Shown in pieces: positions 39,497 through 62,919 of a stretch of DNA of 64,000 bases (position 1 is the first letter of the stretch; the number at the start of each line of letters is the position of its first letter). This stretch comes from Rhodospirillales bacterium (lineage in GTDB: Bacteria; Pseudomonadota; Alphaproteobacteria; Rhodospirillales; Casp-alpha2): contig CBDDJO010000002.1 of assembly GCA_965229805.1 (NCBI GenBank), positions 925,811 through 989,810 on the forward strand, written 5' to 3'. Under the pieces are notes generated by a model. It did not search any database, was not told the origin of the DNA, and saw only the letters and a program-made list of their open reading frames with translations. The translations under genes were made by a program, and so were the position numbers.

Positions 39497-39522
39497 TAAC
39501 CTCAATTGTGATCAGTTAAGGA

Positions 39523-40056: not shown

Positions 40057-40058
40057 AA

Positions 40059-42587: not shown

Positions 42588-42597
42588 ATTCCATCTT

Positions 42598-43640: not shown

Positions 43641-44390
43641 ATGAAGGTACTTGTCGCGGTGAAGCGCGTCATTGACTACAACGTGAATGTGCGGGTGAAG
43701 GCTGACGGCACGGGCGTTGAGAGGTCGAACGTCAAGATGTCCATGAATCCATTCGACGAGATAGCCGTCGAAGAGGCTGTCAGATTGAAGGAGGCCGGTG
43801 TCGCCGACGAAGTCGTCGCTGTGACAGTCGGCAGCGCGCCGTCTCAGGAAACGCTCAGAACCGCCCTCGCCATGGGTGCGGATCGCGGCATACATGTCGT
43901 TTCGGATGAAGAGCTTCAACCGCTCGCCGTCGCGAAGGTGCTTAAATCCATTTGTCTCGAAGAGACGCCGGATCTAGTGATCGTCGGCAAGCAGGCAATT
44001 GATGACGACAGCAACCAGACGGGGCAAATGCTTGCGGCGATGATGAAATGGCCGCAGGGAACTTTTGCGTCGAAAGTGGAACTGAACGACTCAAAAGCCG
44101 TCGTGATCCGTGAAGTGGACGGCGGTCTCGAGACCGTCGGGCTCTCAATGCCTTGTGTCGTTACGACCGATCTGCGGCTCAACGAGCCCAGGTATGCATC
44201 CTTGCCGAATATCATGAAGGCAAAGAAAAAACCAATCGAGGAAAAGCAGGCAAGCGAGCTTGGCGTCGATATCGCGCCGCGATTAACGGTTGTGAGTGTT
44301 TCCGAACCGCCCAAGCGAGAAGCCGGCATTGTTGTGGAGGATGTCTCTCAGTTGGTGGACAAACTGAAGAACGTAGCAAAGGTGATCTAA
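43641..44390 (+). CDS. etfB: Electron transfer flavoprotein beta subunit
   Basis: [20 protein letters not shown]...[17 protein letters not shown] is the canonical EtfB pattern. Confidence 0.9.
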
Positions 44391-44392
44391 TT

Positions 44393-45325
44393 ATGAGTGT
44401 ATTGGTCATTGCTGAACACGATAATTCATCGCTCATGCTGGCCACGCTGTCTGCCGTAACGGCAGGACTGCGGATCAGCGAAATAGTTGACGTGCTGGTT
44501 GCTGGAAGCGACTGCGGCAGCGTCGCTGAAGCGGCGTCGAAGATCGCAGGGGTTAAACGCGTCATGCACTGCGATGATCCTGCTTATGCGCACATGCTCG
44601 CTGAAAATATGGCGCCGTTGATCGTGAGCATGTCGGACGGTTTCACGCATATTCTCGCGCCTGCAACGACGGCCGGTAAGAATATTATGCCGCGTGTGGC
44701 TGCGGACCTGGATGTTGCCCAGATTTCCGACATTGTCGACGTCGTCGATGCGGATATTTTTGTTCGGCCGATATACGCAGGAAACGCGATGGCGACCGTT
44801 AAAAGCAGCGATACCGTCAAGGTGATCACGGTGCGGGGGACGGCATTCGATGCTGCCGATCAGACAGGCGGCAGCGGTTCGATCGAAACGGTTTCGGCGG
44901 CCGAGACCGGTGACAGCTCGGCCTTCATCGGCCAGGAACTCAGTAAATCGGAAAGGCCGGAATTGACGGCAGCCAAAGTGGTCATATCCGGCGGCCGCGG
45001 CATGGGGTCGGGTGAGAACTTTAAACTGATTGATGCCGTTGCAGATAAGCTCGGGGCGGCCGTTGGCGCATCCAGAGCGGCCGTAGATGCTGGTTATGTC
45101 CCCAGTGACTATCAGGTCGGGCAAACCGGCAAGATCGTGGCGCCCGATTTATACGTCGCGGTCGGTATATCCGGCGCCATCCAGCATCTTGCAGGCATGA
45201 AAGATTCGAAAGTCATCGTGGCGATCAACAAAGACCCGGAAGCACCTATCTTTCAGGTTGCCGACTTCGGTCTGGTCGCGGATTTGTTCGAAGCGTTACC
45301 TGAACTCGAAGCCAAGCTGAACTGA
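44393..45325 (+). CDS. etfA: Electron transfer flavoprotein alpha subunit
   Basis: [11 protein letters not shown] start, [11 protein letters not shown], and the [31 protein letters not shown]-binding motif. The listed ORF has a spurious 5' extension. Confidence 0.9.
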
Positions 45326-45430
45326 CACTCCCGATGTGGCACCCCTTGTCGTCGCTGGTGCATGGCGCTGTGAGGCGGCAACAGGGGGCGGAGATCTGCG
45401 TCAAATATTGCCGAAAAGGGGAACTTTCCG

Positions 45431-47119: not shown

Positions 47120-48337
47120 TTAGTCTTTCGCCACAGTCCCGGCCTCTTGAAGGTTCCGGACCTCGTCTTCTGTATAGTTCAATACGGACCTGAGGACCTC
47201 GGTCGTGTGCGCACCAAGCTGAGGGGCAGCGACAGGGTCTTTTCGCTCGAGTTCGGAGAACGTACCGGCAAATCCCGGTGCCGGATAGTCTTCGCCGCTG
47301 GGGTGGCGCAGGTTCCGGTATAATGGATTGGTTTTGACGAGTTCAGGTGTGTGTTCGTAGGCTTCTTTGACAGTCCGGTACACATCCCAGCAGACATTAT
47401 TTTCCTTAAACAGATTGGTTATCTCTTCGAGTGAATGGCGCTGGACGGCGTCGGCCACCATTGGATTGATTCTGTCGCGATGGCGGAAGCGTGTCCCCTC
47501 ATCTAGGGTGAAACTGACGCCAAGCTCCTGTTCGAGGCGGTCGATAGATGACGTGAGCTGCAGTGCCTCGATCAATGATGTCCATTGCCGGGGCGTCAGT
47601 GCAACGATCATGACACGTGCGCCATCCCTGGTCTGGAAATCACGACCGAATGCGCCGAATAGATCATTGCCGTAGCGGGGCCGGTCGTGTCCGCTCGAAA
47701 TCACTTCCCCCAGCATCCCCAGATTGGCGATGGTGGAGAATGCAACATCGCTTAGCGGGATACGGACTTCGCCGCGAATACCGGTTTCACTGCGATTTCT
47801 TTCCGCTGCGATAAGGGAGAGCGCTGCCATTGAACCCGTCATCAGGTCCCATGCCGGCAGCACATGGTTGGTTAGCTCTTGCCTGTCGCCTGGGCCGGTC
47901 AGTGATGCGATGCACACGGCGGGGTTGATCGTGTAGTCGACGGCGCTGGTCCCGTCCGGCCAGCCCATCACCCGGACCGTAATCTGATCGGGACGGGTCT
48001 TGCAGAGGTTCTCGTGTGAGAGGAAACCGTGCGACGGAAAATTGGTCAGCAGAATACCGGCCCGCGGCCCGGGCGCGCAGGCAAGCTTCACGAGAATTTC
48101 CCGGCCAGCCGCCGATTTGAGGTCCAGGGCGACGGATTTCTTGCCGCGGTTAAGGCCTTCTCAGAACAGGCTGTGTCCGTTGGCGCTGAGCGGCCAACGG
48201 TGAAAATCCGGCCCGCCACCTATTTGATCAATGCGGATCACTTCCGCGCCAAGCTGGCTTAGATATAGCCCGGCCGATGGTGCGGCGACGAAGGACGATG
48301 CCTCGATTATCCGAAAACCTTTCAAGAGGTCATACAT
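47120..48337 (-). pseudogene. Family III (CaiB/BaiF) CoA-transferase interrupted by an in-frame TGA
   Basis: The minus strand from the ATG at 48337 reads MYDLLKGFRIIEASSFVAAPSAGLYLSQLGAEVIRIDQIGGGPDFHRWPLSANGHSLF-TGA-EGLNRGKKSVALDLKS... and continues in frame into listed ORF 47120..48091. The stop at 48161..48163 falls where this family usually has W or Y before E-x-x-N-R-G-K. Confidence 0.75.
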
Positions 48338-48433: not shown

Positions 48434-48580
48434 AAAATTCAAAATAAATGACAATTGGTGCCTGCACAGGTAAGATTTGTCAAACTCGGAGCAGGCCGGG
48501 ATTGCGTGTTTTGTGTTGATTGCAGCCTGGATGGCGGAATGCCTTTCCGCCATGCCCAACCTACGAATCTGGATACGGAA

Positions 48581-51283
48581 ATGAACCACGAACTCTATAT
48601 CCCGTTCTCTGGCGAGAATTCTTTCTTCTTTGAACTTTATCGGCGTTACCAGCGTGATCCTCAGTCTGTGCCGATCGACTGGCGTATCCATTTCGAAGCA
48701 CTGGATGATGATGAAAAATCGGGTCAGGCATCGGGGACGGCGGACGCGACCGCTCAGGCTCTGGTTGCGGTATATCGTCAGGAAGGTCACCGGGTGGCGA
48801 GCCTTGATCCGTTGGGTCTCTCGTCAGGCAATCCAGGTGCAACGATGGCAAGCTTGCGCGAAAAGGCAGCCGCGACGGACAGTCAGTGCCGATACAGGCT
48901 CGCCGGCGAGGAACGGATCGGCCGGCTGCAGGATGTGGAGAAAGAGCTCCGCTCCATTTATGGCGGCACCGTAGCGCTGGAAGCCGGGCATATTCAGGAC
49001 GAGGCGGTGCGAAACTGGATATACGAAACGTATGAGCGGGAGATGCTGGCGCCACCGGATGCGGAGTCGCTGATCCGTGTCGGGGATACGATTGCCCGTG
49101 CCGACACCTTCGAGAATTTTTGTAAGATCAAATTCGTCGGAAAAAAGAGATTCGGGATTGAAGGCGCGGAAGGCAGTGTTGTCCTGCTACGAGAACTGCT
49201 GAGGCATGCGGCGCATGCCGGCGTTGCGGAAGTCGTCGCCGGCGGCATGCATCGTGGGCGGCTTGCGACGCTTGTGACGGTGCTGGGTAAGTCTCCGGCG
49301 TTGTTGTTTGCGGAACTCAAGGGTGCGGACCTCACCAACGCGAGCAGCGACTTCACCGGGGATGTGCCGTACCACCTGGGGCATACAGCGGAGCTCACCT
49401 TTGGCTCGCATGAGCTTAAGGTTTCGATATCTCCCCATCCCTCTCATCTGATGGTCGTCGCCCCTGTCGTATTGGGTTATGCCCGGGCTAAACGCGATAA
49501 ATCCGAGGGCAGAGCGATGAGCATCCTGTTGCATACCGATGCGGCGTTCGCCGGGCAGGGGCTTTCAGCAGAGATTATGCAGATGTCCGGTTTGCAGGGC
49601 TATGACACGAGCGGGACAGTGCACATCGTCGTCAATAACCAGATCGGGTTCAGTACAATGCCGTCGGAAGGACGTACGGCTTCATATTGCACCGACGTCG
49701 GAAAGATGATCGGCGTCCCCATTCTGCATGTAAATGGTGATGATCCGGACGCCATGCTGCGCGCTGCTCAAGTTGCTTTCTCATGGCGCCAGAAGTTTGG
49801 CCGCGATGTCCTGATCGATCTCGTTTGCTACAGAAAGAATGGGCATAACGAGTTGGACGAACCACGGTTCACCCAGCCGGGTATGTGGGACGTCATTGAT
49901 AATCACCGCACCGTATTCGAGATCGCGACCGCAAAGATTGCGGAAGTTGCGCCGTACGGCGTGGATCATGTCCAGAATACGGCAAAGGCTTTCCGGACTG
50001 AGCTGGAGGACGCATACGAAGCCGTCGAGGGCGCCTTTACCAATGCGTATCTGCACTACCAGGAAGGCTGGGAGAAGATCAGCGGCAGCGGCGCCGCGTT
50101 GCTCAGCCGAATAGAAACCGGCATTAATGCCAAATCTCTGGAAGCACTTCTTCGCCAAACAACGGAAATACCGGCCTCGGTCCAGGCGCATCCAAAAGTT
50201 GCCCGTTTCTATCAGGAACGGGTATCGAACGTGCTGGATGAAGACAAAGTGGATTTCGCGACAGCCGAGGCGCTGGCGATTGCATCGCTTCTGGATGAAA
50301 AGGTCTCGGTCAGGATTTCCGGTCAGGATTGTGTCCGTGGCACGTTCACGCAGCGCCACTGGCGCGTCCACGATTTGAAAGAGGCAGGCACCTGCACCCC
50401 GGTTGCGTTCGCAGCGAAGGATGGGGCGACGTTCGATGCGATTAACAGTCCGCTCACGGAGTATGGCATTTTAAGTTTCGAGTATGGGTACAGTACGAAT
50501 TCGCCGCAGGCACTCACGATCTGGGAGGCACAGTTCGGCGATTTTCTGAACTGCGCGCAGACTGTTGTTGATCAGTTTATTGTATCAGCCGAGTCGAAAT
50601 GGCGATTGAAATCCGGATTAGTGATCTCGTTACCGCACGGTCTGGAAGGGCAGGGGCCGGATCATTCGTCAGCCCGCATCGAGCGAATTCTTCAATCGTG
50701 TGCACATGACAATATCGTTGTCGTCAATCCGTCCACGCCGGCGAACCTTTTTCATGTTCTGCGTCGACAAATACACGCCTTCTGGCGAAAACCGCTTTTC
50801 CTGATCTCGCCGAAGTCGCCATTGCGCATGAAGGCTGCCGTTTCAAGCGTCGGCGACTTCATCGGTAAAAGTCATTTTCTGCCTGTTATCGGCGAGTCGA
50901 TTAAGGATAAAACCGCGATACGGCGGCTCATCCTCTGCTCGGGCAAGATATTTTACGACCTTGCAGCAGCGCGGGAAGATAATGGGCTCAACGATCGCGT
51001 CGCCATCGTCCGCATCGAACAATTGTATCCGTTGGATATGGAAGCCATCCTCAAAGAAATCGGATCATATGGGAAATGTCAGGACGTGATCTGGTGTCAG
51101 GAAGAAGCGGAGAACCAGGGTGCGTGGAAGTTCATCCGCGACAAGCTTCTGGAAGTGGACAGTGATTTGGCGCTGAAGATCGAATATCATGGCCGCGAAG
51201 CGTTGCCGGTCGCCGCCGGCGGTTCTGTCGACCGGCATGGCGCGGAACAGTCCGGGATCGTAAAGTCGGCTCTCGGCATTTAG
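48581..51283 (+). CDS. 2-oxoglutarate/2-oxoadipate dehydrogenase E1 component-like (SucA family), orphan
   Basis: About 900 aa. The N-terminus GENSFFFELYRRYQRDPQSVPIDWRIHF resembles SucA. Also has the RFGIEGAE, GMHRGRL and HGDAAFAGQG-like (HTDAAFAGQG) TPP region, and LPHGLEGQGPDHSSARIERIL. The start is uncertain (48539 or 48581). Confidence 0.8.
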   Translation: MNHELYIPFSGENSFFFELYRRYQRDPQSVPIDWRIHFEALDDDEKSGQASGTADATAQALVAVYRQEGHRVASLDPLGLSSGNPGATMASLREKAAATDSQCRYRLAGEERIGRLQDVEKELRSIYGGTVALEAGHIQDEAVRNWIYETYEREMLAPPDAESLIRVGDTIARADTFENFCKIKFVGKKRFGIEGAEGSVVLLRELLRHAAHAGVAEVVAGGMHRGRLATLVTVLGKSPALLFAELKGADLTNASSDFTGDVPYHLGHTAELTFGSHELKVSISPHPSHLMVVAPVVLGYARAKRDKSEGRAMSILLHTDAAFAGQGLSAEIMQMSGLQGYDTSGTVHIVVNNQIGFSTMPSEGRTASYCTDVGKMIGVPILHVNGDDPDAMLRAAQVAFSWRQKFGRDVLIDLVCYRKNGHNELDEPRFTQPGMWDVIDNHRTVFEIATAKIAEVAPYGVDHVQNTAKAFRTELEDAYEAVEGAFTNAYLHYQEGWEKISGSGAALLSRIETGINAKSLEALLRQTTEIPASVQAHPKVARFYQERVSNVLDEDKVDFATAEALAIASLLDEKVSVRISGQDCVRGTFTQRHWRVHDLKEAGTCTPVAFAAKDGATFDAINSPLTEYGILSFEYGYSTNSPQALTIWEAQFGDFLNCAQTVVDQFIVSAESKWRLKSGLVISLPHGLEGQGPDHSSARIERILQSCAHDNIVVVNPSTPANLFHVLRRQIHAFWRKPLFLISPKSPLRMKAAVSSVGDFIGKSHFLPVIGESIKDKTAIRRLILCSGKIFYDLAAAREDNGLNDRVAIVRIEQLYPLDMEAILKEIGSYGKCQDVIWCQEEAENQGAWKFIRDKLLEVDSDLALKIEYHGREALPVAAGGSVDRHGAEQSGIVKSALGI

Positions 51284-51315: not shown

Positions 51316-52116
51316 ATGACGGCATTTGAACCTGTTAGAGCATTGGTGCGTGGCTTGGATGTTTTGCGTGCCGTCAGTGAGAACAGCAGGCTCACGGCAT
51401 CCGAGATAGCCAAGCGCCTGGATATTCCTCAACCCACAATTGTCAGAATATTAGAGACATTGATTGCCGTTGGTTACGTCTATCGTGATCTGGACGCAGC
51501 GACGTTCGGTGTGACGGCGAGAACCAAATCGTTGAGTAGCGGATACGATATGAGCTCGCGCGTGGCGCAGCTTGCTCAGCCGACGATCGAGGCGCTTCGA
51601 CAGGAGATCGGCTGGCCATCCAATCTGTCCGTTCCCGTCGGGCGGTCAATGGTCATCGCGTACACCAACCGTGCTGCGCATGGATTGTCGATGCCGGGCA
51701 GATTGGGCGCCCAGCTGCCGATGCTGGCGACCGCCACCGGTATTGTTTACCTGGCGAATCTTGATGATGCCGCTCAAAAGGAACTTCTCTCTGACCTCAA
51801 AAGCAGCAGCGATCCCTGGGACAGCTTGCCGACGCTTTGGAAGGGCCTGAAAAATAAACTGGAGCGTGTGAAGGCGCAGGGTTACGGGCTTGCGGAAGAA
51901 CAGTATCTGGACGCGATCTATCAGTCACGGCTTTGGGCCGTCGCCGTGCCGATCCATTCCAATCTGGGGGTCGAAGCGGCGATCAGCAGTCTGGTGCTCA
52001 GAGATGCCGGCGATCAAGCGGAACAGATAGAGAGAATCCTGCCGAATCTTCGGGATGCCGCACGTGAGATCGGCCGCAAGATAGACCTGGATCGGGGCAT
52101 CGGCGAGATCGAATGA
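51316..52116 (+). CDS. IclR family transcriptional regulator
   Basis: VRALVRGLDVLRAVSENSRLTASEIAKRLDIPQPTIVRILETLIAVGYV followed by an IclR effector domain. Confidence 0.85.
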   Translation: MTAFEPVRALVRGLDVLRAVSENSRLTASEIAKRLDIPQPTIVRILETLIAVGYVYRDLDAATFGVTARTKSLSSGYDMSSRVAQLAQPTIEALRQEIGWPSNLSVPVGRSMVIAYTNRAAHGLSMPGRLGAQLPMLATATGIVYLANLDDAAQKELLSDLKSSSDPWDSLPTLWKGLKNKLERVKAQGYGLAEEQYLDAIYQSRLWAVAVPIHSNLGVEAAISSLVLRDAGDQAEQIERILPNLRDAAREIGRKIDLDRGIGEIE

Positions 52117-52159: not shown

Positions 52160-53013
52160 CTACTCGCCGGTCATGATCGTGCCGCGCATGGCCAGTCCAC
52201 CAATTTCAGACGCGGCCCAGACATCGTAGCAGCTGCCGTCGCTGTTTTTGTCGACGAAAACGGAAATCTCATCCCCGCAGAACAAGGGGGAGATGACTCT
52301 ATATTTATACTTATTGATCTTCGCCTCCGGATGACGGGCTCTGAAGGCTTCGGCGATAAGCGTGGCGGTCAGCGGCCGTGTACGACCAGTCCGGGATACC
52401 CCTCGACGTCTTCTGTATAAGGGCGGTCATAATGAATGCGGTGACTGTTGAAGGTCAGAGCCGAATAGCGAAACAGCATGATTTCATCGACGGTCGTTGA
52501 GCCAATTTTTTGTCCGTGATCCGGTGCCGGGACATGAGACCGCGCTTCTTTTGCGCGGGGCATTTCGCGATAAATTATGTCCTGCTCCTCGATCAGTGAG
52601 GTGCCAAACTGCCCTTCGTAGGTATGAGACAGCGTCAACAGCGTTAATGCTCCGTTGCGGCCAGTCTTCTCCGTGACATTAAGTATCTTGGTTATCTTTT
52701 TGAAGTGTTCCCCGATACGAAGTGTGCGCAGGTATTGAATGCGGCTGCCTGCCCACATGCGACGGGGCAATGCCACAGGCGGAAGGAAACCGCCTCTCAC
52801 CGGGTGGCCATCTGCACCGAGTTCTTTTTGCGGAACGGGTTTGTTGAAATACAACCAGTGACCGGTCGGCGGAAGCGGGCATTCGACTGAAGATTCGATA
52901 TTCTCGCTGTCCAGCAAAGCGGCCAAACCGGCAATGCGATCACCGTGTATTGTTTCTTCCGCCGCCGACGTACGTCCAATCCAATCCGATTTTGATTCCA
53001 TCGTTTGTGACAC
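52160..53013 (-). pseudogene. Double hot-dog (MaoC-like) acyl-CoA hydratase, itaconyl/mesaconyl-CoA hydratase-like, with a 1-nt frameshift
   Basis: The listed ORF ends ..EGYPGLVVHGR-stop at 52369. Shifting one base continues the conserved HG-PLTATLIAEAF...YRVISPLFCGDEISV...GGLAMRGTIMTGE to a stop at 52160. The lesion lies in the GGCCGC run at 52372..52377. Confidence 0.7.
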
Positions 53014-53052: not shown

Positions 53053-54405
53053 TCAATGGAGGCTGCGATCACCAGACAATATTTCTGCGATCTGAGGCAG
53101 GGTATTCCCGTCACCCGTATTGCGGATCAGTTTGAACAGTTTCTCAGTGCCGTCACCGAGGACTGGCTCGACGAGAGCGTTGAACTTTCGCTCCATGCCT
53201 TCCCATCCAAGCGGATTGCCGGGATTGCCGATAGAGATCGGGGTTTCTGCGGAGACCTGTGACCCATCGCCGAAGTGTACCGTCATGGTTGCTGAGACTT
53301 CCGAGACGCCGTCAGTGCCGGTCAGGGTAACCTTTTCCATCAAGCTGCGGATTTTTGGATCGGTAATGCGATCCATATCGAAATCACGCTTGGTCGCGTC
53401 ATATCCGTTCAGGCCTAACGCCGCACAGTACTGATTGCTGAATTTGCCTTCGAGTGGCGTGTTCGGCGACGGCTTTCCTGCGAGACGAAGAACGGAAGGA
53501 TGGACGTTCACGATGACCTTGTCGATATTGTCCAAGTCGATTTTAGATGCAAGTTTCTGCCCGGTTTCAATGGTGGCGTGCGTCAAATTGCATGCCGCGA
53601 AAGGCTTGAACGTATCTTGGAGGATTTGCCAATCTTGACCGAACGAGAGCTTGGGAAAAGTCTTCAAGCCATCCTGGACGAGCGCAGCCGCCAAGGTCTG
53701 ACCCTCAGCTTCAAGCAAGTCGAGTTTCGATTCGAAACCGGCGGAAGCCAGCTCTGCAGAAAGCATCCCGTCCAGCGCGGCTTTGCCGGCATGGAGTGGT
53801 TTCGACATCGTCCCGAACGAGGCCACGAGCCCGATGCATTGGGTCGCAGCGGCACCCAGCGCATTCATGATCTGCTGTTCATTCAAGCCGTAGGCATAGC
53901 TTGAAGCGACGGCAGCCGATAGCCGCCCAAACACGGCCGTCGAGTGAATGCCGCGACCGGTGATCTCGTGACCGAGGCCGTTTCCACCCAGCCTCGAGGC
54001 GACCTCAAAGCCGTTTATGAATGCGTGGAGCGCGGTTTCGTCGTCCAGGCCGAGATGAGAGGCGGTTGCCAGCGTTGCCGCCCATGTAGGTCCGCTCAAG
54101 TGGGCAAGGCAGCCGAAATGCGTATCGTCGAAGTCCAGACAGTGGGCGAATGTCCCGTTCACGAAGGCCGCTGCTGTAGGGGCGTGATATCCAGAGAAAA
54201 ACATCGGCGCACGGCCGGTTGAAGACCAGGCCTTTGCGACGCTCATGGCTGATACGCCCGCCGGCTGGTCGAATGCGCCCAAGCCGACCGCACACCAGTC
54301 GGCCATGCACATGCGCGCGGCGTCCAGAACATTTTCCGGGATCTGCCTCTGCGGCGTTCCGGAAACATAAGAAGCAATTGTCCGGGCGTTTTCCGTGACA
54401 GTCAT
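53053..54405 (-). CDS. MmgE/PrpD family protein
   Basis: 450 aa; DWCAVGLGA, AFVNGTFAHCLDFDDTH and HSTAVFG are typical 2-methylcitrate dehydratase-family segments. Confidence 0.8.
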   Translation of the reverse strand: MTVTENARTIASYVSGTPQRQIPENVLDAARMCMADWCAVGLGAFDQPAGVSAMSVAKAWSSTGRAPMFFSGYHAPTAAAFVNGTFAHCLDFDDTHFGCLAHLSGPTWAATLATASHLGLDDETALHAFINGFEVASRLGGNGLGHEITGRGIHSTAVFGRLSAAVASSYAYGLNEQQIMNALGAAATQCIGLVASFGTMSKPLHAGKAALDGMLSAELASAGFESKLDLLEAEGQTLAAALVQDGLKTFPKLSFGQDWQILQDTFKPFAACNLTHATIETGQKLASKIDLDNIDKVIVNVHPSVLRLAGKPSPNTPLEGKFSNQYCAALGLNGYDATKRDFDMDRITDPKIRSLMEKVTLTGTDGVSEVSATMTVHFGDGSQVSAETPISIGNPGNPLGWEGMERKFNALVEPVLGDGTEKLFKLIRNTGDGNTLPQIAEILSGDRSLH

Positions 54406-55607
54406 GATGTGATCTCTCCCTTGTTCATGAAGGCTTTGATTTCGTCAGTTTGGCACCCGAGGTCCGCGAGTATCGCGGGGGCGTCGCCATTCAGGGCAGG
54501 GGCGCGGCCCCGTGTCGGCGCGGCAAGCCCCGTGCATGCCAATGGATTCGTGATATGCGGCACCTGTGGGTTGTCTTTAAATGCCACAGGGTCCAATAGG
54601 CCGCGGCCTTTTACATTCTCCGAGTGCAATGCTTCGCCAGGCGAAAGCACAGGCGTTATCGGCACGCCTTTGGCCTCCATCAAATCTATGATGTCGTCGC
54701 GGGTGTGAGCGAGGCAGTAATCGGAAATCGTCTTCCGATAAACCTCGGCGAGGTCGCCGTGATTGCTCAACCGGTCATGCGTGGATTCGTTCTCATTGAT
54801 CAGATCGTCCCGGCCGATGGCATGGCAGAATCCCTTCCAGAGCCGAGGCTCAAGCAGCGCCACCGCGACGGACTTCCCATCTTTCGTCCCATAGATGGCA
54901 TACCTTGGGTTTCCGCCCCAAACTTCCAATCGATTTGGGTCGTCTGTTTTCGCCGCGTCGGCCAATGCACCGGTCAGGGCAATATTGCTCATGCTGAACA
55001 GGCTATCGAACATCGATATATCCAGATAACAGCCTTCGTCCGTGGTATGCCGGCGAAGCAATGCCGATATAATGCCAATGCAAGCGACATTGGCGCCGGC
55101 AAAATCAGCGGCTTGAAAATGCGGCATCTGGGGTGGCACTCCATCTTTTGCGGCAACGCCCAGAACGCCTGTCTGACATTGAATTGCCAGATCGTGCCCG
55201 GAGATATGGGCAAGCGGCCCGGTTTGCCCGAAGCCGGTGATTGAACAGTAAACGATGTCTGGCGAGAGGGATTTTGCGGTTTCGTAGCCGATGCCAAGCT
55301 TGGCCGCGAGGCCAGGGCGAAATGACTCGACGACAACGTCGGCATTGTCGATGAGCCGGTGCGCAATCGCCAGATCGCCCTCATCTGTGAGATCTAGGGT
55401 GATACTTTTCTTCCCGCCGTTCACCCCGGTGAAATACACGCTGACGTCATCGACTTTCGGCGAATTGTGCCGGCTCCCATCGCCGATGTGTGGGGCCTCG
55501 ATCTTGATGACTTCGGCTCCAAGGTCGGAGAGAAACTGAGTGCACCAGGGGCCTGGCAGCAATCTGCTGAAATCGACGATCCTAATATTCTGTAACGGTA
55601 GATTCAT
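54402..55607 (-). CDS. Family III (CaiB/BaiF) CoA-transferase
   Basis: LQNIRIVDFSRLLPGPWCTQFLSDLGAEVIKIE, NGGKKSITLDL, and the GHDLAIQCQTG Asp region. Has a 4-nt overlap with the PrpD-family gene. Confidence 0.85.
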   Translation of the reverse strand: MNLPLQNIRIVDFSRLLPGPWCTQFLSDLGAEVIKIEAPHIGDGSRHNSPKVDDVSVYFTGVNGGKKSITLDLTDEGDLAIAHRLIDNADVVVESFRPGLAAKLGIGYETAKSLSPDIVYCSITGFGQTGPLAHISGHDLAIQCQTGVLGVAAKDGVPPQMPHFQAADFAGANVACIGIISALLRRHTTDEGCYLDISMFDSLFSMSNIALTGALADAAKTDDPNRLEVWGGNPRYAIYGTKDGKSVAVALLEPRLWKGFCHAIGRDDLINENESTHDRLSNHGDLAEVYRKTISDYCLAHTRDDIIDLMEAKGVPITPVLSPGEALHSENVKGRGLLDPVAFKDNPQVPHITNPLACTGLAAPTRGRAPALNGDAPAILADLGCQTDEIKAFMNKGEITS

Positions 55608-55913
55608 GCTCTGACCCTTTAACTCCCTTCCTCGTTTACCGGCGCCGAAACGGAACCGTTCCCAGTTGCCCGTGCAGGCGTTTCACCAAATTGGAAAATT
55701 CCTAATTGATTGACTCGGCGATCTGGGATAATTAACATAATGGAATACGTTCCGTCTATCGGAATATCGAAATTCCGGTGGTGATCTTCTCGTGCGGGCA
55801 CCAACCGCGACCGCCCACAAGGGCGGCGCATCGGGGTTCGGCGATGGAAAGGGCGCATTTTCGTCTTTGCCTTGTAACCGGCAGGGAAACATTTCGGGTT
55901 GGAGGATACAGTT

Positions 55914-56702
55914 ATGGATTTGGGAATTGATGGGCGTGTCGCGCTGGTAATCGGTGGTGGCCGGGGTATCGGGTATGCCGTTTGCAATGATCTCGCCGCT
56001 GCGGGGGGCAAAGTTGCGATCGCAGATATCAACGGCGACGGCGCAAAGGAATCGGCAGGCAAACTGGCCGCCGAGACATCTGCGGAAACGATGGGTATCG
56101 GCCTCGATATCAGCTCTATGGAAAGTGTGCGCTCTGGCTACGACGAGATAGCAAAGAAGTTCGGTGCGCCGGAAATCCTGATCATCACCGCAGCTATTGT
56201 TGACGATAAGTTATTCTTGGAATCCTCAGTCGACGACTGGAAGCCCATGATCGACATCTGCCTGTATGGGCCGATGAACGTCCTCAGCGTCGCTTTGCCG
56301 AGCATGGTCGAAAACAATTACGGCCGTGTTGTTTGCATGGCTACGGACTCTGCGCGCGTCGGGCAGGCGCGGCTTTCCTATTACGCGGCGGCCAAAGCCG
56401 GCGTGGTGGCATTGGTCAAATCCGTTGCCCAGGAAATCGGCTCGAAGGGGGTCAATCTGAACGTCGTCTCTCCTGGGGCCACCAACACAGAACTGCGCAT
56501 GGCGCGCGAAGAGGCGATGAAAGCCGAAATGGGCGAGGAAAAGTACGTTCGGCGGGTGGAGAAAGTGCTGCGCATGTATCCGGTTCGTCGGATCGGCGAG
56601 CCGGAAGATATCGCGTCGATCACGGCCTTTTTGGTTAGTGAACGGGCGTCTTGGATTACAGGCCAAGTCGTTAGCGTTAATGGCGGCTTTGTGATGCCTT
56701 GA
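55914..56702 (+). CDS. Short-chain dehydrogenase/reductase (SDR)
   Basis: GGGRGIG cofactor motif, YYAAAKAG catalytic Y-x-x-x-K, and C-terminal ITGQVVSVNGG. Confidence 0.85.
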   Translation: MDLGIDGRVALVIGGGRGIGYAVCNDLAAAGGKVAIADINGDGAKESAGKLAAETSAETMGIGLDISSMESVRSGYDEIAKKFGAPEILIITAAIVDDKLFLESSVDDWKPMIDICLYGPMNVLSVALPSMVENNYGRVVCMATDSARVGQARLSYYAAAKAGVVALVKSVAQEIGSKGVNLNVVSPGATNTELRMAREEAMKAEMGEEKYVRRVEKVLRMYPVRRIGEPEDIASITAFLVSERASWITGQVVSVNGGFVMP

Positions 56703-56712
56703 GGATACGGAC

Positions 56713-57867
56713 GTGGACTTAGAACTAACAACCGAACAAAGACTCATTCAGGAGTCTGCCATTGAAATGTCGGAGCGGGATATCGTTCCGGTCCTCAAGC
56801 GAAACCCGGTAGACTTACCGTTGCCGAAATCGGAAATGCTGGAGATTTTCGGTGTTCTGGCCCGGCAAGGTTTGATGGCGCCGCGCCTGCCTGTTGAAGA
56901 AGGCGGGGCCGGCCTGAAGATGCTGGACTACGGGCTGATTTTCGAACAGTTGCCGGCGGAGATAGCTATCGCCCTGCTGTCACAGGATTGTACGATTGCG
57001 CGAATTTTCGCCGAGTCGACGCAAGAGCAGCGTGATCGGTTTCTTCCCGGATTGCTTAACGGCACGAAGATTTCGTGTACTGCCACCACGGAACCCGATG
57101 CTGGCTCGAACCCGCGTGAAATCAAAACGCGAATCTCGGATGCCGGGGATCATTTTCGCCTAAACGGAAGGAAGATGTGGATAACCAACGCAACCATATC
57201 AGATGTCGTGAACGTAACATGTATCGACGGTTTGGATGAAAAGGGAAGGGGGCGTATAAGGCGACTGGCCGTGGAGCTTGAGCACTCGCCTTTTGAAACT
57301 TCCGAGATTCCGAGCCTTGGCCTTCGCCAAGGACATTTGGGAGAACTGAGCTTCGACGATTGTCCGGTGCCGAAGGATAATGCGCTTGGCTCAACCGGTG
57401 ACGCTGCCAAGTTGCTGACATTGACGTGGAATGGAAATCGACCCCTAGTCGGGTTGGCTGCCGTCGGGTTGGCGCAAAAAGCATTTAATTCCGCTTTAGA
57501 GTATTCGGGCACAAGAAAACAGTTCGGCAAGTTGATTGGCGGCCACCAACTCGTTCAAGCTCATCTGGCGGAAATCCAAACACTAATCACGACTAGCCGC
57601 CTTCTCTGCTATTCCGCCCTGAATGCGACCGACCATGGACATCGGGCAAACGGATTGTCCGCGATGGCGAAGCATTACGCGACGGAGTCCTGTGAAAAAG
57701 CGATCACTGAAGCGATTCAATTACATGGCGCTATGGGGATTGCATGCGAGACAGGTCTCGAGAAGCTGTATCGCGATGTCCGAATGCTGCCTATTCCAGA
57801 TGGGGCAAACAACATTCTGGCACTGATCCAAGGTCGTGAACTCACAAATATTGACGCGTTCAAGTAG
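56713..57867 (+). CDS. Acyl-CoA dehydrogenase family protein (Asp at the canonical catalytic Glu position)
   Basis: TEPDAGSNPREIKT...LNGRKMWITNA and the C-terminal LYRDVRMLPIPDGANNIL (MCAD-type IYEGT region). GTG start with a GAGGA RBS. Confidence 0.85.
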   Translation: MDLELTTEQRLIQESAIEMSERDIVPVLKRNPVDLPLPKSEMLEIFGVLARQGLMAPRLPVEEGGAGLKMLDYGLIFEQLPAEIAIALLSQDCTIARIFAESTQEQRDRFLPGLLNGTKISCTATTEPDAGSNPREIKTRISDAGDHFRLNGRKMWITNATISDVVNVTCIDGLDEKGRGRIRRLAVELEHSPFETSEIPSLGLRQGHLGELSFDDCPVPKDNALGSTGDAAKLLTLTWNGNRPLVGLAAVGLAQKAFNSALEYSGTRKQFGKLIGGHQLVQAHLAEIQTLITTSRLLCYSALNATDHGHRANGLSAMAKHYATESCEKAITEAIQLHGAMGIACETGLEKLYRDVRMLPIPDGANNILALIQGRELTNIDAFK

Positions 57868-57879: not shown

Positions 57880-59883
57880 ATGGAACAGGTTCACGGTTTA
57901 AACGGCATTAGGGTCGTCGAGCGTACCGGACGATTGGCTGTGAGATTGTGTTCGTTCCTTTTGCGGCAAGCGGGGGCTTCGCTTACCCGTGTCGAAACGG
58001 CATTGTTAGACACGGGGAACGAGCCCCGGTTCTGGAAGGACTATCCGAAGTTCGATGACGGTGTTGAGACGCTGAACCTTGGATTAAGCGACAATGTCTG
58101 CGGGGATGAAGAGCCTGCACCCGATATCATCATCATCGGCGTGGATGGCAATGAAAATCGTAAAAGTCTGGAAGCACAGACCGCCGGGATAGACCCAAAC
58201 CGAACAATCATGTGCGTCATTTCGCCGTTCGGGGTGGATGCAGAGCATCCACCTTCGACGGAGACGGACGAGCTGGCCATTCAGGCCGTCAGCGGGCTCA
58301 TGGCGACAACCGGAGAGCTTGGCGGTGAACCGTGCGCCGTCGGTGTTCCGGTTATGGAAGTCTTTGCGGCCATCAATGCGGCAAGCTCGGCTGTCGCGGC
58401 ATTGCGGGCGAGGGCGCTCGGCGGCGGGGCGAAGCTCATCGATATTGCCGTCTTCGATGCGGCCATCGGTATGTTTGGGTCTTTTCTCGGGAACGTGGCG
58501 AATGGTCACGCCCGCGGGCTTCGGGGCGGTTGCCGGCATCCTATTGTCGCGCCTTGGAATGCCTATCCGACGCGTGATGGGTGGGGTGTGATATGCACGG
58601 TCTCGAACGAGCAATGGTTTCGGCTGCTTGACGTCATCGGACGAGCAGAGTTGCGTCAAGACGAAAGGTTTCAGACGGCAAAATCAAGGGTAGAGAATTG
58701 CGACACTGTCGATGAAATAGTTACAAATTGGTCGAAGACGCAAACGACGGACGCGTTGATCCTGGCGCTGACCGGCCGGGGAATTCCGGCGGGTAAGACG
58801 GCCACAATTGCACAACTGAGGAGCGGGCCGAGCCCCGTCCCATGCCGACGAAAATTCTACGATACCCAAATAGCCAGGAATGATGCTGCACCGATCTCTC
58901 ACGGCAAACTACCACTGGCGGGTGTCCGGATTGTCGAAGTCGGCGCGTATACCGCCGGGCCATATGCGGGGCGCATGCTTTACAATCTGGGTGCGGACGT
59001 CATCAAGGTCGAACCGTTGGTAGGTGAGGTCAGCAGGGCCTGGACGCCACGCGTAGGAAACAGCAGCGTTTTTTTCGCCAATTACAATGCGGGGAAGAAA
59101 TCTGTCGCGCTGGACCTGAAAACACAACCCGGCCGAGAAAGCTTCAAAACCCTGTTGGGTGGGGCAGACGTCGTTCTGCAAAACCTGAAAGCAGGCGCGA
59201 TGGACGATCTCGGGCTGGGACCGGGCGAGTTATTCTCCGACACCGCATTGAAGGTTTATTGCAATGTTGTCGGCTTCAGTGGAGAGCTACAAGACCGTCC
59301 GGCGTTCGACACGGTTATACAGGCTGAAGCGGGCATCATGTCGTTAATCGGGAGCGGAACATCGCCAATGAAGGCAGGATTTTCGCTCGCGGATCTCTTG
59401 GCTGCCCATCTGGCTGTTTTTGAGATCGTATCGGCGCTCCGCGCCGCGAATGAAAGTCGGCACCCGGTCGAACTGACGGTGTCGATGCAAGACGCCTTGG
59501 CGTGGCTCACTCAAATCAGTTGGGCTTCTGAAGGCTCCGTCTTGCCGCCGCACACGGTGTGCCGAACCAACGATGGCTGGATTGTTGTCCGCCACCAGGG
59601 TCAGAGCCCGCAAACAGATATCGATTTCTCATCGTCAACGACGGATGAAGCGCTCGTGCAAGCCGCTGAAACCGGTATGCCGGCGACAAAAATCTTCGAG
59701 TTAGACGAGGTTCTGGCAGACGAACATGTGAAGGCCAGACTGTTGTTGATGGAAGAATCCGATGGAGATCGGTTGTTGAAGTATATGACCGCGGCGCCGT
59801 TCGGGTTCGATAAGAATTCGATCAGATACGGTGACCAGGTCTCTGAAGTGGGAGCAGACAATGATGCCTACCTCAGCCGGTGA
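57880..59883 (+). CDS. Tandem-duplicated (two-module) family III CoA-transferase, 667 aa
   Basis: Module 1 covers roughly aa 1-330: degenerate N-terminus GIRVVERTGRLAVRLCSFLLRQAGASLTRVE and Asp region TDELAIQAVSGLM. Module 2 is canonical: GVRIVEVGAYTAGPYAGRMLYNLGADVIKVEP, NAGKKSVALDLK, PAFDTVIQAEAG. Confidence 0.8.
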   Translation: MEQVHGLNGIRVVERTGRLAVRLCSFLLRQAGASLTRVETALLDTGNEPRFWKDYPKFDDGVETLNLGLSDNVCGDEEPAPDIIIIGVDGNENRKSLEAQTAGIDPNRTIMCVISPFGVDAEHPPSTETDELAIQAVSGLMATTGELGGEPCAVGVPVMEVFAAINAASSAVAALRARALGGGAKLIDIAVFDAAIGMFGSFLGNVANGHARGLRGGCRHPIVAPWNAYPTRDGWGVICTVSNEQWFRLLDVIGRAELRQDERFQTAKSRVENCDTVDEIVTNWSKTQTTDALILALTGRGIPAGKTATIAQLRSGPSPVPCRRKFYDTQIARNDAAPISHGKLPLAGVRIVEVGAYTAGPYAGRMLYNLGADVIKVEPLVGEVSRAWTPRVGNSSVFFANYNAGKKSVALDLKTQPGRESFKTLLGGADVVLQNLKAGAMDDLGLGPGELFSDTALKVYCNVVGFSGELQDRPAFDTVIQAEAGIMSLIGSGTSPMKAGFSLADLLAAHLAVFEIVSALRAANESRHPVELTVSMQDALAWLTQISWASEGSVLPPHTVCRTNDGWIVVRHQGQSPQTDIDFSSSTTDEALVQAAETGMPATKIFELDEVLADEHVKARLLLMEESDGDRLLKYMTAAPFGFDKNSIRYGDQVSEVGADNDAYLSR

Positions 59884-59924
59884 ACCCCAAAAACAAAACC
59901 AGAATGATCACAAGGAAGTGCTCC

Positions 59925-62084
59925 ATGTCTGAAAACTCGGAGAATTGGCTCGACGGACGTGTGGTTGTCGAACTGGGCAGCAGAATTTCCGTGGGGGCAT
60001 GCGGGTCGTTGTTGGCTCAGGCGGGTGCAACCGTTTTCTTCGTGGAACCAGTCAATGGCGCGGCGCCGGCTGGCAAGTTCGCCAGCCGTAGAGTGTTCTC
60101 CGCCGGGAAGAAAAGCCTTGGAATAGATTATCAGAATCAAGACGACAGGAAGCTCCTGTGTGAACTCTTGAGAAAGGCCGATGTGGTACTGCTGTCCAGT
60201 GACTGGGACGGCCCGATCGCCGATGACATCGAAGCCGCTTGTGAAGGTGCGGCGGCTGTATGTGAATTTGCGGCAACGGGTGAACGAGCAGATACGTCGT
60301 TCGGGCCACTGACGGACGCGACGGTACAGGCCATGTCCGGCATTGCCTACACGAACGGGTTTCCAGGAGAGGAGCCGGTCGTCTTGAATGTGCCGATCCT
60401 GGAATATTCGGCCGGTGTCTACGGTGCGTCCGCATGTGTTGCCGCGCTCGAAACGATGCGTCAGTTCGGTCAGCCGCAAGAAATCGAAGTGACGCTCTTT
60501 GACTGCGCCATAAACGCTCTATCGACGTTTCTTCCTGCGGTCTATGAGGGGAAAGAGCCGGGGCGTTTGGGCAATGGGCATCCGATGGCGGCGCCGTGGA
60601 ATGCCTACAACGCGGCAGATGGCTGGATTCTGCTATGTTCGGCATCTGACGATCATTGGAAGCGTGTCTGTCAGACGATCGAACGGGACGATCTTGCAAA
60701 TGACGGGAGATTCGCAACCCTTGGTGATCGTATTGCACATCGGACCATGGTTGACGATGCGATCGCCGAGTGGGTTGCAAAGCACAGTGTCGATGAATGT
60801 ATCGCTTCCTTTTCCAGCAGAAAATTAGCATGTGGCGCGATTGTTAAGCTCCCTGAGCTGAAGAGCGAACCCAATGTGGTTTATCGTCAGGCCATCACGC
60901 AGGTTCCCGAAAATAACGGTGAGACGACGTCGTTCGTGCCAGGTAGGTTTTTAAAGGCATCAACCGGGATCAGTAGTACGCCTATGGCTATTCCAGGTGT
61001 CGATGACGGCCGTGACCTCGCCAGAAGCTGCCGCCGTACGGATTTGAGCTGTGAGTCCAGGTCAAACGAGGAAAATATCACGCTGCCGCTCACGGGTGTG
61101 CGGGTGCTTGAGATCGGCCAGTACACAACAGCGCCACTGACGGCCCGTCATCTCGCGAGCTTAGGCGCTGAAGTGATTAAGATCGAGCCGCCCAGTGGGG
61201 ATGCTGCGCGTGAGTGGGCGCCGAAAGTTGACGGACTGAGTGTATTCTTCGCCATGAGCAATAGTGGGAAAACCAGTTATTGCCTAGACCTGAAGACAGA
61301 GTTCGGAAGAGATGCATTCGCCGAGCTTGTCGCTACGGCGGATGTGATGGTTGAGAATATGAAGCCCGGTTCACTTGCGGCGATCGGCTTCACGGCAGCG
61401 CGTTTGCAAGAGATAAATCCGAAACTGATATACTGTGCGATCACCGGGTTTGGGTCCGATTCCGTTTACGAGAATCGCCCGGCATTCGATACGGTTGTTC
61501 AGGCTATGTCCGGTATGATGGATGCCAACGCCTGGAATGGTATCCCCTTGAAGGCCGGCGTATCAGCATGCGATTTCATGGGGGGCGAAGTTGCCCTGTT
61601 TTCGATTCTTGCCGCCTTGCACAAGAGAGCGGCGTCAGGCCGTGGTGTCGTCCTGGACCTGTCTATGCAGGACATTTCAGTATGGATGACGGCAACTTTA
61701 TGGTCGAAAGAGACAGAGCAAACCACGTGCAATCGTGTCCTGCAGTGCAGTGACGGCTATGTTTTGCTTGAAGGTGTTGAAGGTGCGATTGGTCGGCTAC
61801 TGGATGCTTTAGGTTCCGAGAAAACAAGCCTTGCTGAAATGCTTGAAAAGGCCAGCCTTGAGATGGTTGCGGCAACCCCGATTTCACGATTGTCAGATGC
61901 GCTCAAATCAGACGCTGCCAAGAGCACCAATCCCGTAGTATCCGTTGAAGGGCACGGCAGCAAGCAGTGGCAAGTGCTTCGTTCACCAATGAGGTTGAGC
62001 CCGACGTCGCCTGCAATATGTGCCCCGGCCGGGCAGGCGTCGCCATTCAGCTTGAGCACATTGACTGCGATGAAAGGTGAATGA
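59925..62084 (+). CDS. Tandem-duplicated (two-module) family III CoA-transferase, about 719 aa
   Basis: Module 1: GRVVVELGSRISVGACGSLLAQAGATVFFVEP and LTDATVQAMSGI. Module 2: GVRVLEIGQYTTAPLTARHLASLGAEVIKIEP, NSGKTSYCLDLK, PAFDTVVQAMSGM. The ATG at 59925 is preceded by AAGGAAG; the listed ORF starts at the GTG at 59880. Confidence 0.8.
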   Translation: MSENSENWLDGRVVVELGSRISVGACGSLLAQAGATVFFVEPVNGAAPAGKFASRRVFSAGKKSLGIDYQNQDDRKLLCELLRKADVVLLSSDWDGPIADDIEAACEGAAAVCEFAATGERADTSFGPLTDATVQAMSGIAYTNGFPGEEPVVLNVPILEYSAGVYGASACVAALETMRQFGQPQEIEVTLFDCAINALSTFLPAVYEGKEPGRLGNGHPMAAPWNAYNAADGWILLCSASDDHWKRVCQTIERDDLANDGRFATLGDRIAHRTMVDDAIAEWVAKHSVDECIASFSSRKLACGAIVKLPELKSEPNVVYRQAITQVPENNGETTSFVPGRFLKASTGISSTPMAIPGVDDGRDLARSCRRTDLSCESRSNEENITLPLTGVRVLEIGQYTTAPLTARHLASLGAEVIKIEPPSGDAAREWAPKVDGLSVFFAMSNSGKTSYCLDLKTEFGRDAFAELVATADVMVENMKPGSLAAIGFTAARLQEINPKLIYCAITGFGSDSVYENRPAFDTVVQAMSGMMDANAWNGIPLKAGVSACDFMGGEVALFSILAALHKRAASGRGVVLDLSMQDISVWMTATLWSKETEQTTCNRVLQCSDGYVLLEGVEGAIGRLLDALGSEKTSLAEMLEKASLEMVAATPISRLSDALKSDAAKSTNPVVSVEGHGSKQWQVLRSPMRLSPTSPAICAPAGQASPFSLSTLTAMKGE

Positions 62085-62181: not shown

Positions 62182-62919
62182 TTAATTCAACTGCTTGACC
62201 CGTCGCCTACTTCCAGCGCGTGTAGATATTCGGTCTGCAGAAGTAATCAGTAACTGAGCAAATTTATCAGCGTTAGGAGCGATGCGTCCAGTAGGCCCAA
62301 AAATGCCCAGAGAGTGAGAACATTCGTCCTTAATGTTGAACAGCGGCACCGCAATCCCAACCAAGCCCTCAGTTCGCTGATTGGTTGCCATCACGTATCC
62401 ATGTTTCAGCACGTGGTCCACGTCCTCGCGTATCTTGGCTTTATCCTTACGTTGTGTCTTCAGGTATTCATTAAAATGATTGGGGTGGTACGCAAGGAAT
62501 ACGCGGCCGGTTGCGCCAGTGTTGCGATCGTTCTGCTCTCCGCGGCGTATTACAATCTTCAGGATTTCCGTACTTTCAATGAAGTCTATAATTACCCGAG
62601 AGTCACCGATAAGGGCGCTTAGCGCGACAGTTTCGTTTACTTCTTTCGAAATAAACTCCAGTTCGGGGCGCGCCAATCTCGCCATGTCAGGGTCAATTCG
62701 GACACAGTCTCCTAATCGAAGCGCTTTCATGGATAACTCGAAATGAGTGTTGTCAGTGTGAAGGACGTAACCGGAATCAATTAACGTCTGCAGAATCCTG
62801 AATGTCGTCGTCTTAGGTAGCTTTACCTTGACGCTTATTTCATGGAGCGTAAGCAACGGTTGGTTCGGCTCAAAGGTCTCCAAAATACTAAGTGCGCGGT
62901 CAATGGATCTGATACTCAA
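62182..62919 (-). CDS. IclR family transcriptional regulator
   Basis: IRSIDRALSILETFEPNQPLLTLHEISVKVKLPKTTTFRILQTLIDSGYV followed by an effector domain. Confidence 0.85.
   Translation of the reverse strand: MSIRSIDRALSILETFEPNQPLLTLHEISVKVKLPKTTTFRILQTLIDSGYVLHTDNTHFELSMKALRLGDCVRIDPDMARLARPELEFISKEVNETVALSALIGDSRVIIDFIESTEILKIVIRRGEQNDRNTGATGRVFLAYHPNHFNEYLKTQRKDKAKIREDVDHVLKHGYVMATNQRTEGLVGIAVPLFNIKDECSHSLGIFGPTGRIAPNADKFAQLLITSADRISTRAGSRRRVKQLN

Follow-up and report, generated by a model that had tools for sequence, protein, structure and literature searches.

Two adjacent genes of a Rhodospirillales bacterium encode trimmed tandem family III CoA-transferases that probably retain one composite active site each

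The 64,000-nucleotide stretch of DNA analysed here (the window) comes from a Rhodospirillales bacterium (assembly GCA_965229805.1, contig CBDDJO010000002.1, positions 925,811 to 989,810 of the forward strand), and all coordinates below are those of the window. Near its 3' end lie two neighbouring genes, here named A and B, each of which encodes a polypeptide with two modules of the family III coenzyme A (CoA) transferases joined in tandem. Both genes are on the + strand, their reading frames show no interruption, and they are tightly spaced within one operon-like block. It is probable that A and B are paralogous single-chain family III pseudo-dimers, in which one composite active site has been retained. 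The features of the two genes, with lengths in amino acids (aa) and module boundaries given as positions of a 399-position profile of canonical enzymes, are the following:

57880..59883, + strand: gene A, encoding a trimmed tandem family III CoA-transferase of 667 aa, with an ATG start (open reading frame, Pfam PF02515)
57880..58857, + strand: A N-module, aa 1-326, with degenerate CoA pocket and intact small domain (profile 7-53 and 120-330)
58522..58539, + strand: A N-module loop R215-G-G217-C-R-H220, counterpart of the YfdE GNxH loop (R215 and G217 invariant, H220 at least 90% in the A-family alignment)
58858..58914, + strand: A linker, aa 327-345, about 20 aa, lying between the profile matches (predicted confidence, pLDDT, below 50 only at 335-338)
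58915..59880, + strand: A C-module, aa 346-667, with canonical large domain and truncated small domain (profile 5-214, 200 bits, and 298-380, 23 bits)
59308..59310, + strand: codon of A Asp477, the predicted catalytic nucleophile (invariant in the A-family alignment)
59925..62084, + strand: gene B, encoding a trimmed tandem family III CoA-transferase of 719 aa (open reading frame, PF02515, Shine-Dalgarno sequence, orthologue length)
59925..60944, + strand: B N-module, aa 1-340 (profile 1-352, 186 bits)
60564..60581, + strand: B N-module loop R214-L-G216-N217-G-H219, of GNxH type (R214, G216, N217 and H219 invariant in the B-family alignment)
60945..61076, + strand: B linker, aa 341-384, about 45 aa (pLDDT dips in blocks 341-350 and 371-380)
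61077..62081, + strand: B C-module, aa 385-719, with canonical large domain and truncated small domain (profile 5-217, 240 bits, and 301-364, 8 bits)
61488..61490, + strand: codon of B Asp522, the predicted catalytic nucleophile (invariant in the B-family alignment)

The start of B deserves some attention, since an alternative start at GTG 59880 would give a protein of 734 aa and overlap the stop codon of A as GTGA. No Shine-Dalgarno sequence was found at GTG 59880, whereas the sequence AAGGAAG at 59912-59918 lies 7 nt 5' of ATG 59925. The latter start gives the 719 aa found in the orthologue P0121 (94% identity, independent assembly, 23 member sequences), it is the one placed by the gene caller 41 nt past A on the near-identical contig L086, and the alignment of B to the canonical profile begins at its Met. 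On these grounds ATG 59925 is most likely the start of B, as judged from the sequence, and the GTG start with its coupling by overlap was rejected. A spacer of 41 nt then follows A, so that the translational coupling proposed in the preliminary description of the locus, which depends on GTG 59880, falls away. The description of two adjacent fused genes of 667 and 719 aa is otherwise borne out by the reading frames and by proteins of the same lengths from independent assemblies, the near-twin of A being P0001 (667 aa, 98% identity, 27 member sequences). A scan for promoters and terminators between 55.5 and 62.4 kb yielded no more sites than shuffled sequence.

Membership in family III is clear for both proteins. 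The Pfam domain CoA_transf_3 (PF02515) matches A with 350 bits in three stretches and B with 439 bits in two, against a gathering cut-off of 23.3, and a custom profile, built from 50 canonical relatives of about 400 aa, detects an N-module and a C-module in each, so that the N-terminal halves are found as well. What does not hold is the earlier view that both modules are complete: there are indeed two CoA_transf_3 modules per protein, but each is trimmed, and in a complementary manner. The N-modules are devoid of the C-terminal tail of 50-70 residues, which leads back to the large domain, while in the C-modules about 40 residues (some 37 in A) replace about 80 of profile positions 215-297, which constitute the small-domain core and include the GNxH loop. 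Linkers of 40-60 aa had also been proposed, a range that fits B and not A. A and B align from end to end with 32% identity, whereas BLASTP detects no similarity between the N-module and the C-module of the same protein.

Structures predicted with AlphaFold2 from family alignments agree with this picture. Both predicted models are compact, two-module single bodies, in which disorder is confined to the linker, with a pLDDT of 88.5 and a pTM of 0.93 for A and a pLDDT of 90.6 and a pTM of 0.94 for B. The C-module of modelled B has two helices between the β-hairpin and the next strand, compared with five in its N-module, and these helix counts confirm the shortened small domain of the C-module. When the models were compared with the PDB by Foldseek, the top 50 matches listed were canonical monomers only, with no tandem chain among them (TMt 0.61-0.77, and 0.65-0.77 for the best of them; TMq at most 0.44); they include 9zav, 4ed9, YfdE (4hl6), SUGCT (9br6/9br7), Rv3272, BbsEF (9fn0), Frc and CaiB.

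Proteins of this kind are numerous. A search with B returned 949 proteins at E <= 1e-30, and the best 120 are nearly all of 680-790 aa. The N-module of B alone, compared with 1.84 billion representatives of clusters at 50% identity, gave 298 matches at the same threshold; of the 150 best, 123 reach a length of 600 aa or more and show two or more matched stretches. Two RefSeq carriers, WP_172977915.1 (Pseudorhizobium flavum plasmid 2) and WP_082670593.1 (a Paraburkholderia caribensis plasmid), are labelled just "CoA transferase". The 195 fused proteins fall into two classes: a trimmed one (157 proteins, median 717 aa), which has no C-module small-domain core and to which A and B belong, and a full one (38 proteins, median 795 aa), in which both modules span the profile from about 5 to 380 or beyond. 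A scan of genome contigs with the pattern LGA[ED]V[IVL]K[VI]E was swamped by canonical enzymes and yielded a handful of fused loci.

It is well known that canonical family III enzymes consist of two identical subunits of about 400 aa that interlock and carry two active sites, each shared between one subunit, which supplies its large domain with the CoA pocket and catalytic Asp, and the partner, which supplies its small domain. In YfdE, Asp173 is opposite His233, which belongs to the GNxH loop of the other subunit (PMC3720670), the same geometry of partner loop and Asp has been described for Mct (PMC9196870), and the titles of PDB entries 2vjm, 2vjo and 9fol document covalent Asp intermediates. 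The question is then which of these elements persist in the tandem proteins, and it can be addressed by aligning each module of the 157 trimmed homologues to the canonical profile and counting conservation position by position.

The outcome is a complementary conservation of the two modules. In the C-module, P24, G34, A35, K39, E41, R50, N68, K71, N100, D144, Q148 and G152 (profile numbering) are conserved in 98-100% of the proteins; the catalytic position D144 is Asp in all of them, Q148 and G152 are likewise at 100%, and the GNxH region is a gap in 87-91%. The N-module presents the reverse. Its CoA pocket is degenerate (K39 replaced by F, V, R or L, R50 kept in 33%, N100 changed to Ser, P24 to G, A or S), as exemplified by GATVFFVE in place of GAxVIKxE in B, while the loop residues R228, G230, H233, P238 and W239 are conserved in 99-100% and N231 in 81% (Cys in 15%). 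The complete CoA-binding motif (GP...LGAxVIKxE, R50, N68, K71, N100) is accordingly present in both C-modules of the locus and in neither N-module. The same residues stand out within the narrower families: the invariant positions include R215, G217, D477 and Q481 in the A-family alignment, and R214, G216, N217, H219, D522 and Q526 in the B-family alignment of 50 sequences. The motif strings quoted in the preliminary description are all present in the translations, and its contrast between a canonical CoA site in the C-modules and a degenerate one in the N-modules is upheld by the profile and the homologues. Its claim that all four modules keep the catalytic Asp region stands for the C-modules, where D477 and D522 precede the xxxQAxSG helix, and has to be softened for the N-modules, where the residue is D or E and not invariant and where, in A, the local D130-E131 leaves the alignment register ambiguous.

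Since each family III site is composed of a large and a small domain that come from different subunits, and since the elements retained in A and B are complementary, we infer one active site per polypeptide from conservation and from the homologous structures. The retained site would comprise the large domain of the C-module, with Asp477 in A or Asp522 in B and the GAxVIKxEP CoA motif, together with the small domain of the N-module, which would contribute the GNxH-type loop with His220 in A or His219 in B. The reciprocal site would have been dismantled from both sides, through degeneration of the CoA pocket in the N-module and deletion of the loop and helices in the C-module. If the chemistry follows that of the family, the Asp would attack the donor acyl-CoA, an Asp-acyl anhydride and an Asp-CoA thioester would form as intermediates, and the CoA would then pass to the acceptor carboxylate. 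The reading of each protein as a covalently fused pseudo-heterodimer, already advanced for the locus, is thus the best one in view of the two diverged modules and the compact predicted models.

The genes that surround A and B form a conserved block, with the MmgE/PrpD-family gene and a canonical CoA-transferase gene on one strand, followed by those of a short-chain dehydrogenase/reductase (SDR), an acyl-CoA dehydrogenase (ACAD), A and B on the other. The members of the block and its nearest companions are:

52369..53013, - strand: MaoC-like (hot-dog) hydratase (Pfam FAS1_DH_region, 24.8 bits; Htd2/MaoC is called here on the near-identical contig L086)
53053..54405, - strand: MmgE/PrpD-family gene (Pfam MmgE_PrpD_N and _C)
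54402..55607, - strand: canonical 401-aa family III CoA-transferase, divergently oriented (Pfam 1-365 of 366, 321 bits; kept in related loci)
55899..56702, + strand: SDR, first gene of the putative operon (Pfam adh_short_C2, 177 bits; position kept in L001, L003 and L086-L089)
56713..57867, + strand: ACAD, directly 5' of A (Pfam ACAD N, M and C domains; orthologues 60-72% identical in the same position)
62182..62919, - strand: IclR-family regulator, 3' of B (Pfam IclR_C and HTH_IclR; same position in L084 and L086)

Pfam thus agrees with the original placement of an SDR and an ACAD ahead of A and B in the same orientation. The block recurs in L086 (near-identical to the window), in L001, in L003 (a Roseovarius metagenome-assembled genome, MAG), in L087, in L088 and in L089 (a Marinosulfonomonas MAG). 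The protein identity is 41-52% in L001, L003, L087, L088 and L089 (46% for A and 52% for B in L001), and L089 starts inside the SDR gene, so that just SDR, ACAD, A and B are visible there. The most constant neighbour of the trimmed tandems is the MmgE/PrpD-family gene, found in the block at 13 of the 14 related loci examined; at L084 it lies just upstream of the block, and L089 does not extend that far upstream. The closest solved relatives of the MmgE/PrpD protein of the window are the B. subtilis "IRG1", iminodisuccinate (IDS) epimerase and cis-aconitate decarboxylase.

Several observations bear on the substrate. All known substrates of the PrpD family contain a succinate substructure, and the itaconate cluster contains, beside a methylsuccinyl-CoA dehydrogenase and a CoA-transferase, a PrpD-family methylsuccinate isomerase whose substrate is the free acid (PMC12290011). 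The constant MmgE/PrpD neighbour therefore suggests a substituted dicarboxylate, and the catalytic modules are most closely related to dicarboxylate CoA-transferases (succinate-glutarate and mesaconate in NCBIfam, YfdE and SUGCT in the PDB), with scores well short of the equivalog cut-offs. By analogy with the itaconate cluster, A and B probably act on a di- or tricarboxylic acid of substituted succinate or glutarate type. A tentative order of reactions, put forward with low confidence, would begin with activation of the acid from succinyl- or acetyl-CoA, followed by oxidation by the ACAD, hydration by the MaoC-type enzyme and oxidation by the SDR.

The presence of two fused genes side by side raises the possibility that A and B are obligate partners in a hetero-oligomer, a tetramer of modules resembling the α2β2 arrangement of BbsEF, in which neither protein works alone. 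Strict orthologues of A (40-46% identity) are always directly followed by a B-type gene, with spacers of 13-41 nt, in L001, L003, L087, L088 and L089, and a fused pair is also present in a Burkholderiaceae MAG (L004). However, single fused genes of B-type or intermediate character occur in similar neighbourhoods at no fewer than seven loci (L084, L085, L082, L083, L006, L090 and L091), so that the constant co-occurrence of subunits seen in BbsEF/SmtAB-type systems does not apply; L084, on P. flavum plasmid 2, reads E1-like, IclR, old yellow enzyme (OYE), CoA-transferase, SDR, ACAD, one fused gene and IclR, an order that resembles that of the window except for the absence of A. Moreover, A and B each keep their own full complement of catalytic residues. 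The solitary B-type genes in this synteny leave an obligate complex, and with it the hetero-tetramer-equivalent assembly suggested at first, without support, and we regard it as unlikely. Two paralogues with separate roles are the simpler reading, and a facultative complex between them is possible.

A different objection concerns the N-module. A number of points weigh against a single transferase site of the kind proposed. The N-module equivalent of D144 is Asp in 73% and Glu in 26% of the trimmed tandems, hence acidic in 99%, which is not expected of the simple decay of a second site, and Q148 and G152 are kept there in 97% and 98%; an acidic residue and a QAxSG helix that are near-universal in a supposedly dead module form a pattern that the single-site proposal leaves unaccounted for. 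The N-module pocket may therefore be remodelled rather than dead. The homologues were, in addition, gathered from searches seeded with A and B themselves. As for function, racemases belong to the family as well, as do Mct, an intramolecular transferase, and DddD, a transferase/lyase, and the chemistry of A and B could therefore be another; the NCBIfam equivalog scan gave sub-threshold matches only (succinate-glutarate, mesaconate, oxalate and formyl-CoA transferases), with scores three- to four-fold below the cut-offs, and no specific function can be assigned on that account. The substrate class is read from the gene neighbourhood alone, and no lyase or thiolase gene was found inside the block; an HMGL-like lyase is encoded in the next operon of contig L086.

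The strongest form of this objection holds that both pockets are functional, the N-module site having been adapted to a further reaction, such as that of a lyase or an isomerase or an intramolecular shift of CoA, or to a second ligand, and that A and B are bifunctional. Besides the acidic position, Q148 and G152, it draws on further invariant residues of the N-module large domain (E16, G18, R20, K62 and D93 in the B family, E14 and G32 in the A family) and on the precedent of the characterised tandem enzyme DddD, which according to PMC8163506 performs two steps. Nevertheless, about 90% of the homologues have lost the loop and helices of the C-module, which are the partner half of the N-module pocket, the contacts to the CoA nucleotide are gone, and the description of Mct (PMC9196870) places the D/E-x3-Q-A-x-S-G helix in the core of the dimer, so that the constraint on it may be structural. 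Bifunctionality of this kind thus seems very unlikely to us, and the single composite site is preferred.

That the fusions are artefacts of a missed stop, a frameshift or a chimeric assembly, and that the locus really holds four ordinary genes, is extremely unlikely and was rejected as far as the sequence data reach. Nothing in favour of it was found; the in-frame TGA of another family III gene in the window (48161-48163) shows that defects or pseudogenes do occur here, but A and B are open throughout, have same-length counterparts in independent assemblies and more than 150 homologues of 600-750 aa, including the RefSeq proteins of cultured Pseudorhizobium and Paraburkholderia and the long representatives that dominate the search with the B N-module, and consist of modules too trimmed for free-standing enzymes.

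The history of these single-chain pseudo-dimers can be outlined from a rough tree, calculated by neighbour joining from the large-domain region and without support values, in which the N-modules of the trimmed class form one clade and their C-modules another, with nine "full" tandems joining each. The fact that the N-modules of A and B share one clade and their C-modules the other, together with the end-to-end identity of the two proteins, points to one fusion followed by duplication. The data fit a single fusion, then trimming, then the A/B duplication, with the caveat on the tree just given; as far as these comparisons go, we are dealing with an old fusion that was later duplicated and not with a recent tandem duplication. 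A minority among the best matches to the B N-module are short: P0263, P0270, P0283, P0288, P0333, P0348, P0364 and P0379 have 320-415 aa and a single matched stretch, and could be either gene fragments or free-standing N-module-like subunits from an unfused heterodimer stage.

Tandem family III enzymes as such are not without precedent. DddD, the DMSP CoA-transferase/lyase, is a marine bacterial enzyme found in Marinomonas, Halomonas, Endozoicomonas and Ruegeria. It resembles A and B in having two tandem CaiB-type modules in one chain; its essential Asp, D602, reportedly belongs to the C-terminal one, where the catalytic Asp of A and B is also predicted. The two CaiB domains of DddD occupy residues 1-416 and 439-821 (PMC7174347), and the enzyme is described in PMC8163506, which cites Alcolombri 2014, as an acetyl-CoA-dependent CoA-transferase/lyase that produces 3-hydroxypropionyl-CoA and dimethyl sulfide (DMS). 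The initial statement that such an architecture has not been biochemically characterised is therefore wrong for tandem family III fusions, given what PMC7174347 and PMC8163506 report on DddD.

The differences are nonetheless considerable. DddD has about 820-840 aa and two near full-length modules, whereas A and B, with 667 and 719 aa, are 100-170 aa shorter and have a trimmed C-module. It is encoded with other ddd genes, namely dddT (a BCCT transporter), dddB, dddC and the LysR-type regulator dddR (PMC8163506), whereas A and B are accompanied by PrpD-family, ACAD, SDR, MaoC-like and IclR genes with no ddd linkage at the locus; and two fused paralogues lie side by side, unlike in DddD. A and B are not DddD, being set apart by length, C-module trimming and gene context. 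None of the ten clusters of tandem proteins of about 800 aa bears the name DddD.

Other known systems share part of the design. The canonical homodimers (YfdE, SUGCT, Brucella 4ed9/9zav, Rv3272, Frc) are the closest sequence relatives of A and B and have in common with them the fold, the Asp and CoA motif of the C-module and the GNxH loop of the N-module; they consist of two separate copies of a chain of about 400 aa and have two equivalent sites, in contrast to one chain with two unequal modules and apparently one site. In BbsEF and SmtAB, too, the dimer combines two modules that are diverged paralogues with adjacent genes, and BbsEF (9fn0) is among both the sequence and the structure matches, but their subunits are separate polypeptides of about 400 aa, whereas the pseudo-heterodimer proposed for A and B is covalent and trimmed. 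The itaconate/methylsuccinate cluster (Ict, Ich, Ccl, methylsuccinyl-CoA dehydrogenase and a PrpD-family isomerase; PMC12290011) also brings together a CoA-transferase, an ACAD, an MmgE/PrpD protein and a MaoC-type hydratase. It has neither a tandem-fused transferase nor an SDR, and it includes a citramalyl-CoA lyase (Ccl); the block around A and B has no such lyase and hence not the full gene set. A literature search on fused or tandem family III CoA-transferases and on Rv1866, a two-domain protein, gave nothing usable, and no paper on the trimmed subclass or on complementary erosion was found within a literature coverage that is incomplete.

The tandem principle was known before from DddD, and A and B are no new enzyme class; since tandem fusions are common in databases, they represent a tidy variant of moderate interest and not a new kind of enzyme. 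The main new result is the complementary erosion of the two modules in the trimmed tandems, as read from their aligned sequences. A natural single-chain form with one site could serve to test whether the two sites of the canonical enzymes must communicate, and which residues the partner subunit has to contribute. The result also flags a large protein group, comprising 123 or more clusters at 50% identity, for which "CoA transferase" is the sole annotation, and the constant association with MmgE/PrpD points to dicarboxylate catabolic routes yet to be worked out. Going further, one could imagine that the trimmed tandems are an uncharacterised and widespread clade with one transferase site, whose second pocket has been remodelled for a further step, making them bifunctional like DddD, and that, along with the MmgE/PrpD partner, they constitute a CoA-dependent pathway, so far undescribed, by which marine Rhodobacterales and other Pseudomonadota process substituted succinate-type acids, with A acting on one acid and B on another, or each on one carboxyl end of the same acid; this conjecture, taken as a whole, we hold to be quite unlikely.

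The wider surroundings of the block, upstream of the genes listed above, contain further functions related to carboxylates and CoA esters:

27682-28800, + strand: canonical full-length family III CoA-transferase (profile 8-394, 222 bits)
38416-41327, 42772-43566 and 44153-47086, + strand: tripartite ATP-independent periplasmic (TRAP) transporter (DctP/Q/M), enoyl-CoA hydratase (ECH), electron transfer flavoprotein (ETF) α-like protein and ETF-ubiquinone oxidoreductase (ETF-QO)
41397-42722, - strand: open reading frame of 441 aa with no Pfam match at E <= 1e-4
47135-48328, - strand: fifth family III CoA-transferase gene, with an in-frame TGA at 48161-48163 inside a conserved motif (HSLF*EGLNRGKKS)
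48455-51283, + strand: stand-alone gene of a 942-aa 2-oxoglutarate-dehydrogenase E1-like protein, lacking E2 and E3 genes beside it
51316-52116, + strand: IclR regulator following the E1-like gene

Between 38 and 64 kb the window thus holds genes for the TRAP transporter, ECH, ETF, ETF-QO, the E1-like protein, IclR, the MaoC-like and PrpD-like proteins, CoA-transferases, SDR and ACAD, and five family III genes were counted in the whole window. The TRAP transporter and the ETF/ETF-QO genes fit carboxylate uptake and an electron outlet for the ACAD, and in L087-L089 a TRAP carboxylate transporter directly follows the A-B operon. The interrupted family III gene matches the profile at 8-54 before the stop and at 67-398 after it, in the same frame, and is either a pseudogene or the product of a sequencing error. 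The pair formed by the E1-like gene and IclR is also found 5' of the block with CoA-transferase, SDR, ACAD and fused CoA-transferase on P. flavum plasmid 2 (L084), and it may be part of the same pathway as A and B. Beyond the IclR gene 3' of B, related loci have a second conserved operon for CoA esters (L086 11309-14004, L084 13248-20360, L001 13343-19675), which the window, ending at 64000, stops short of, and which contains an ECH, an HMGL-like lyase, two ACADs, more ECHs and another CoA-transferase.

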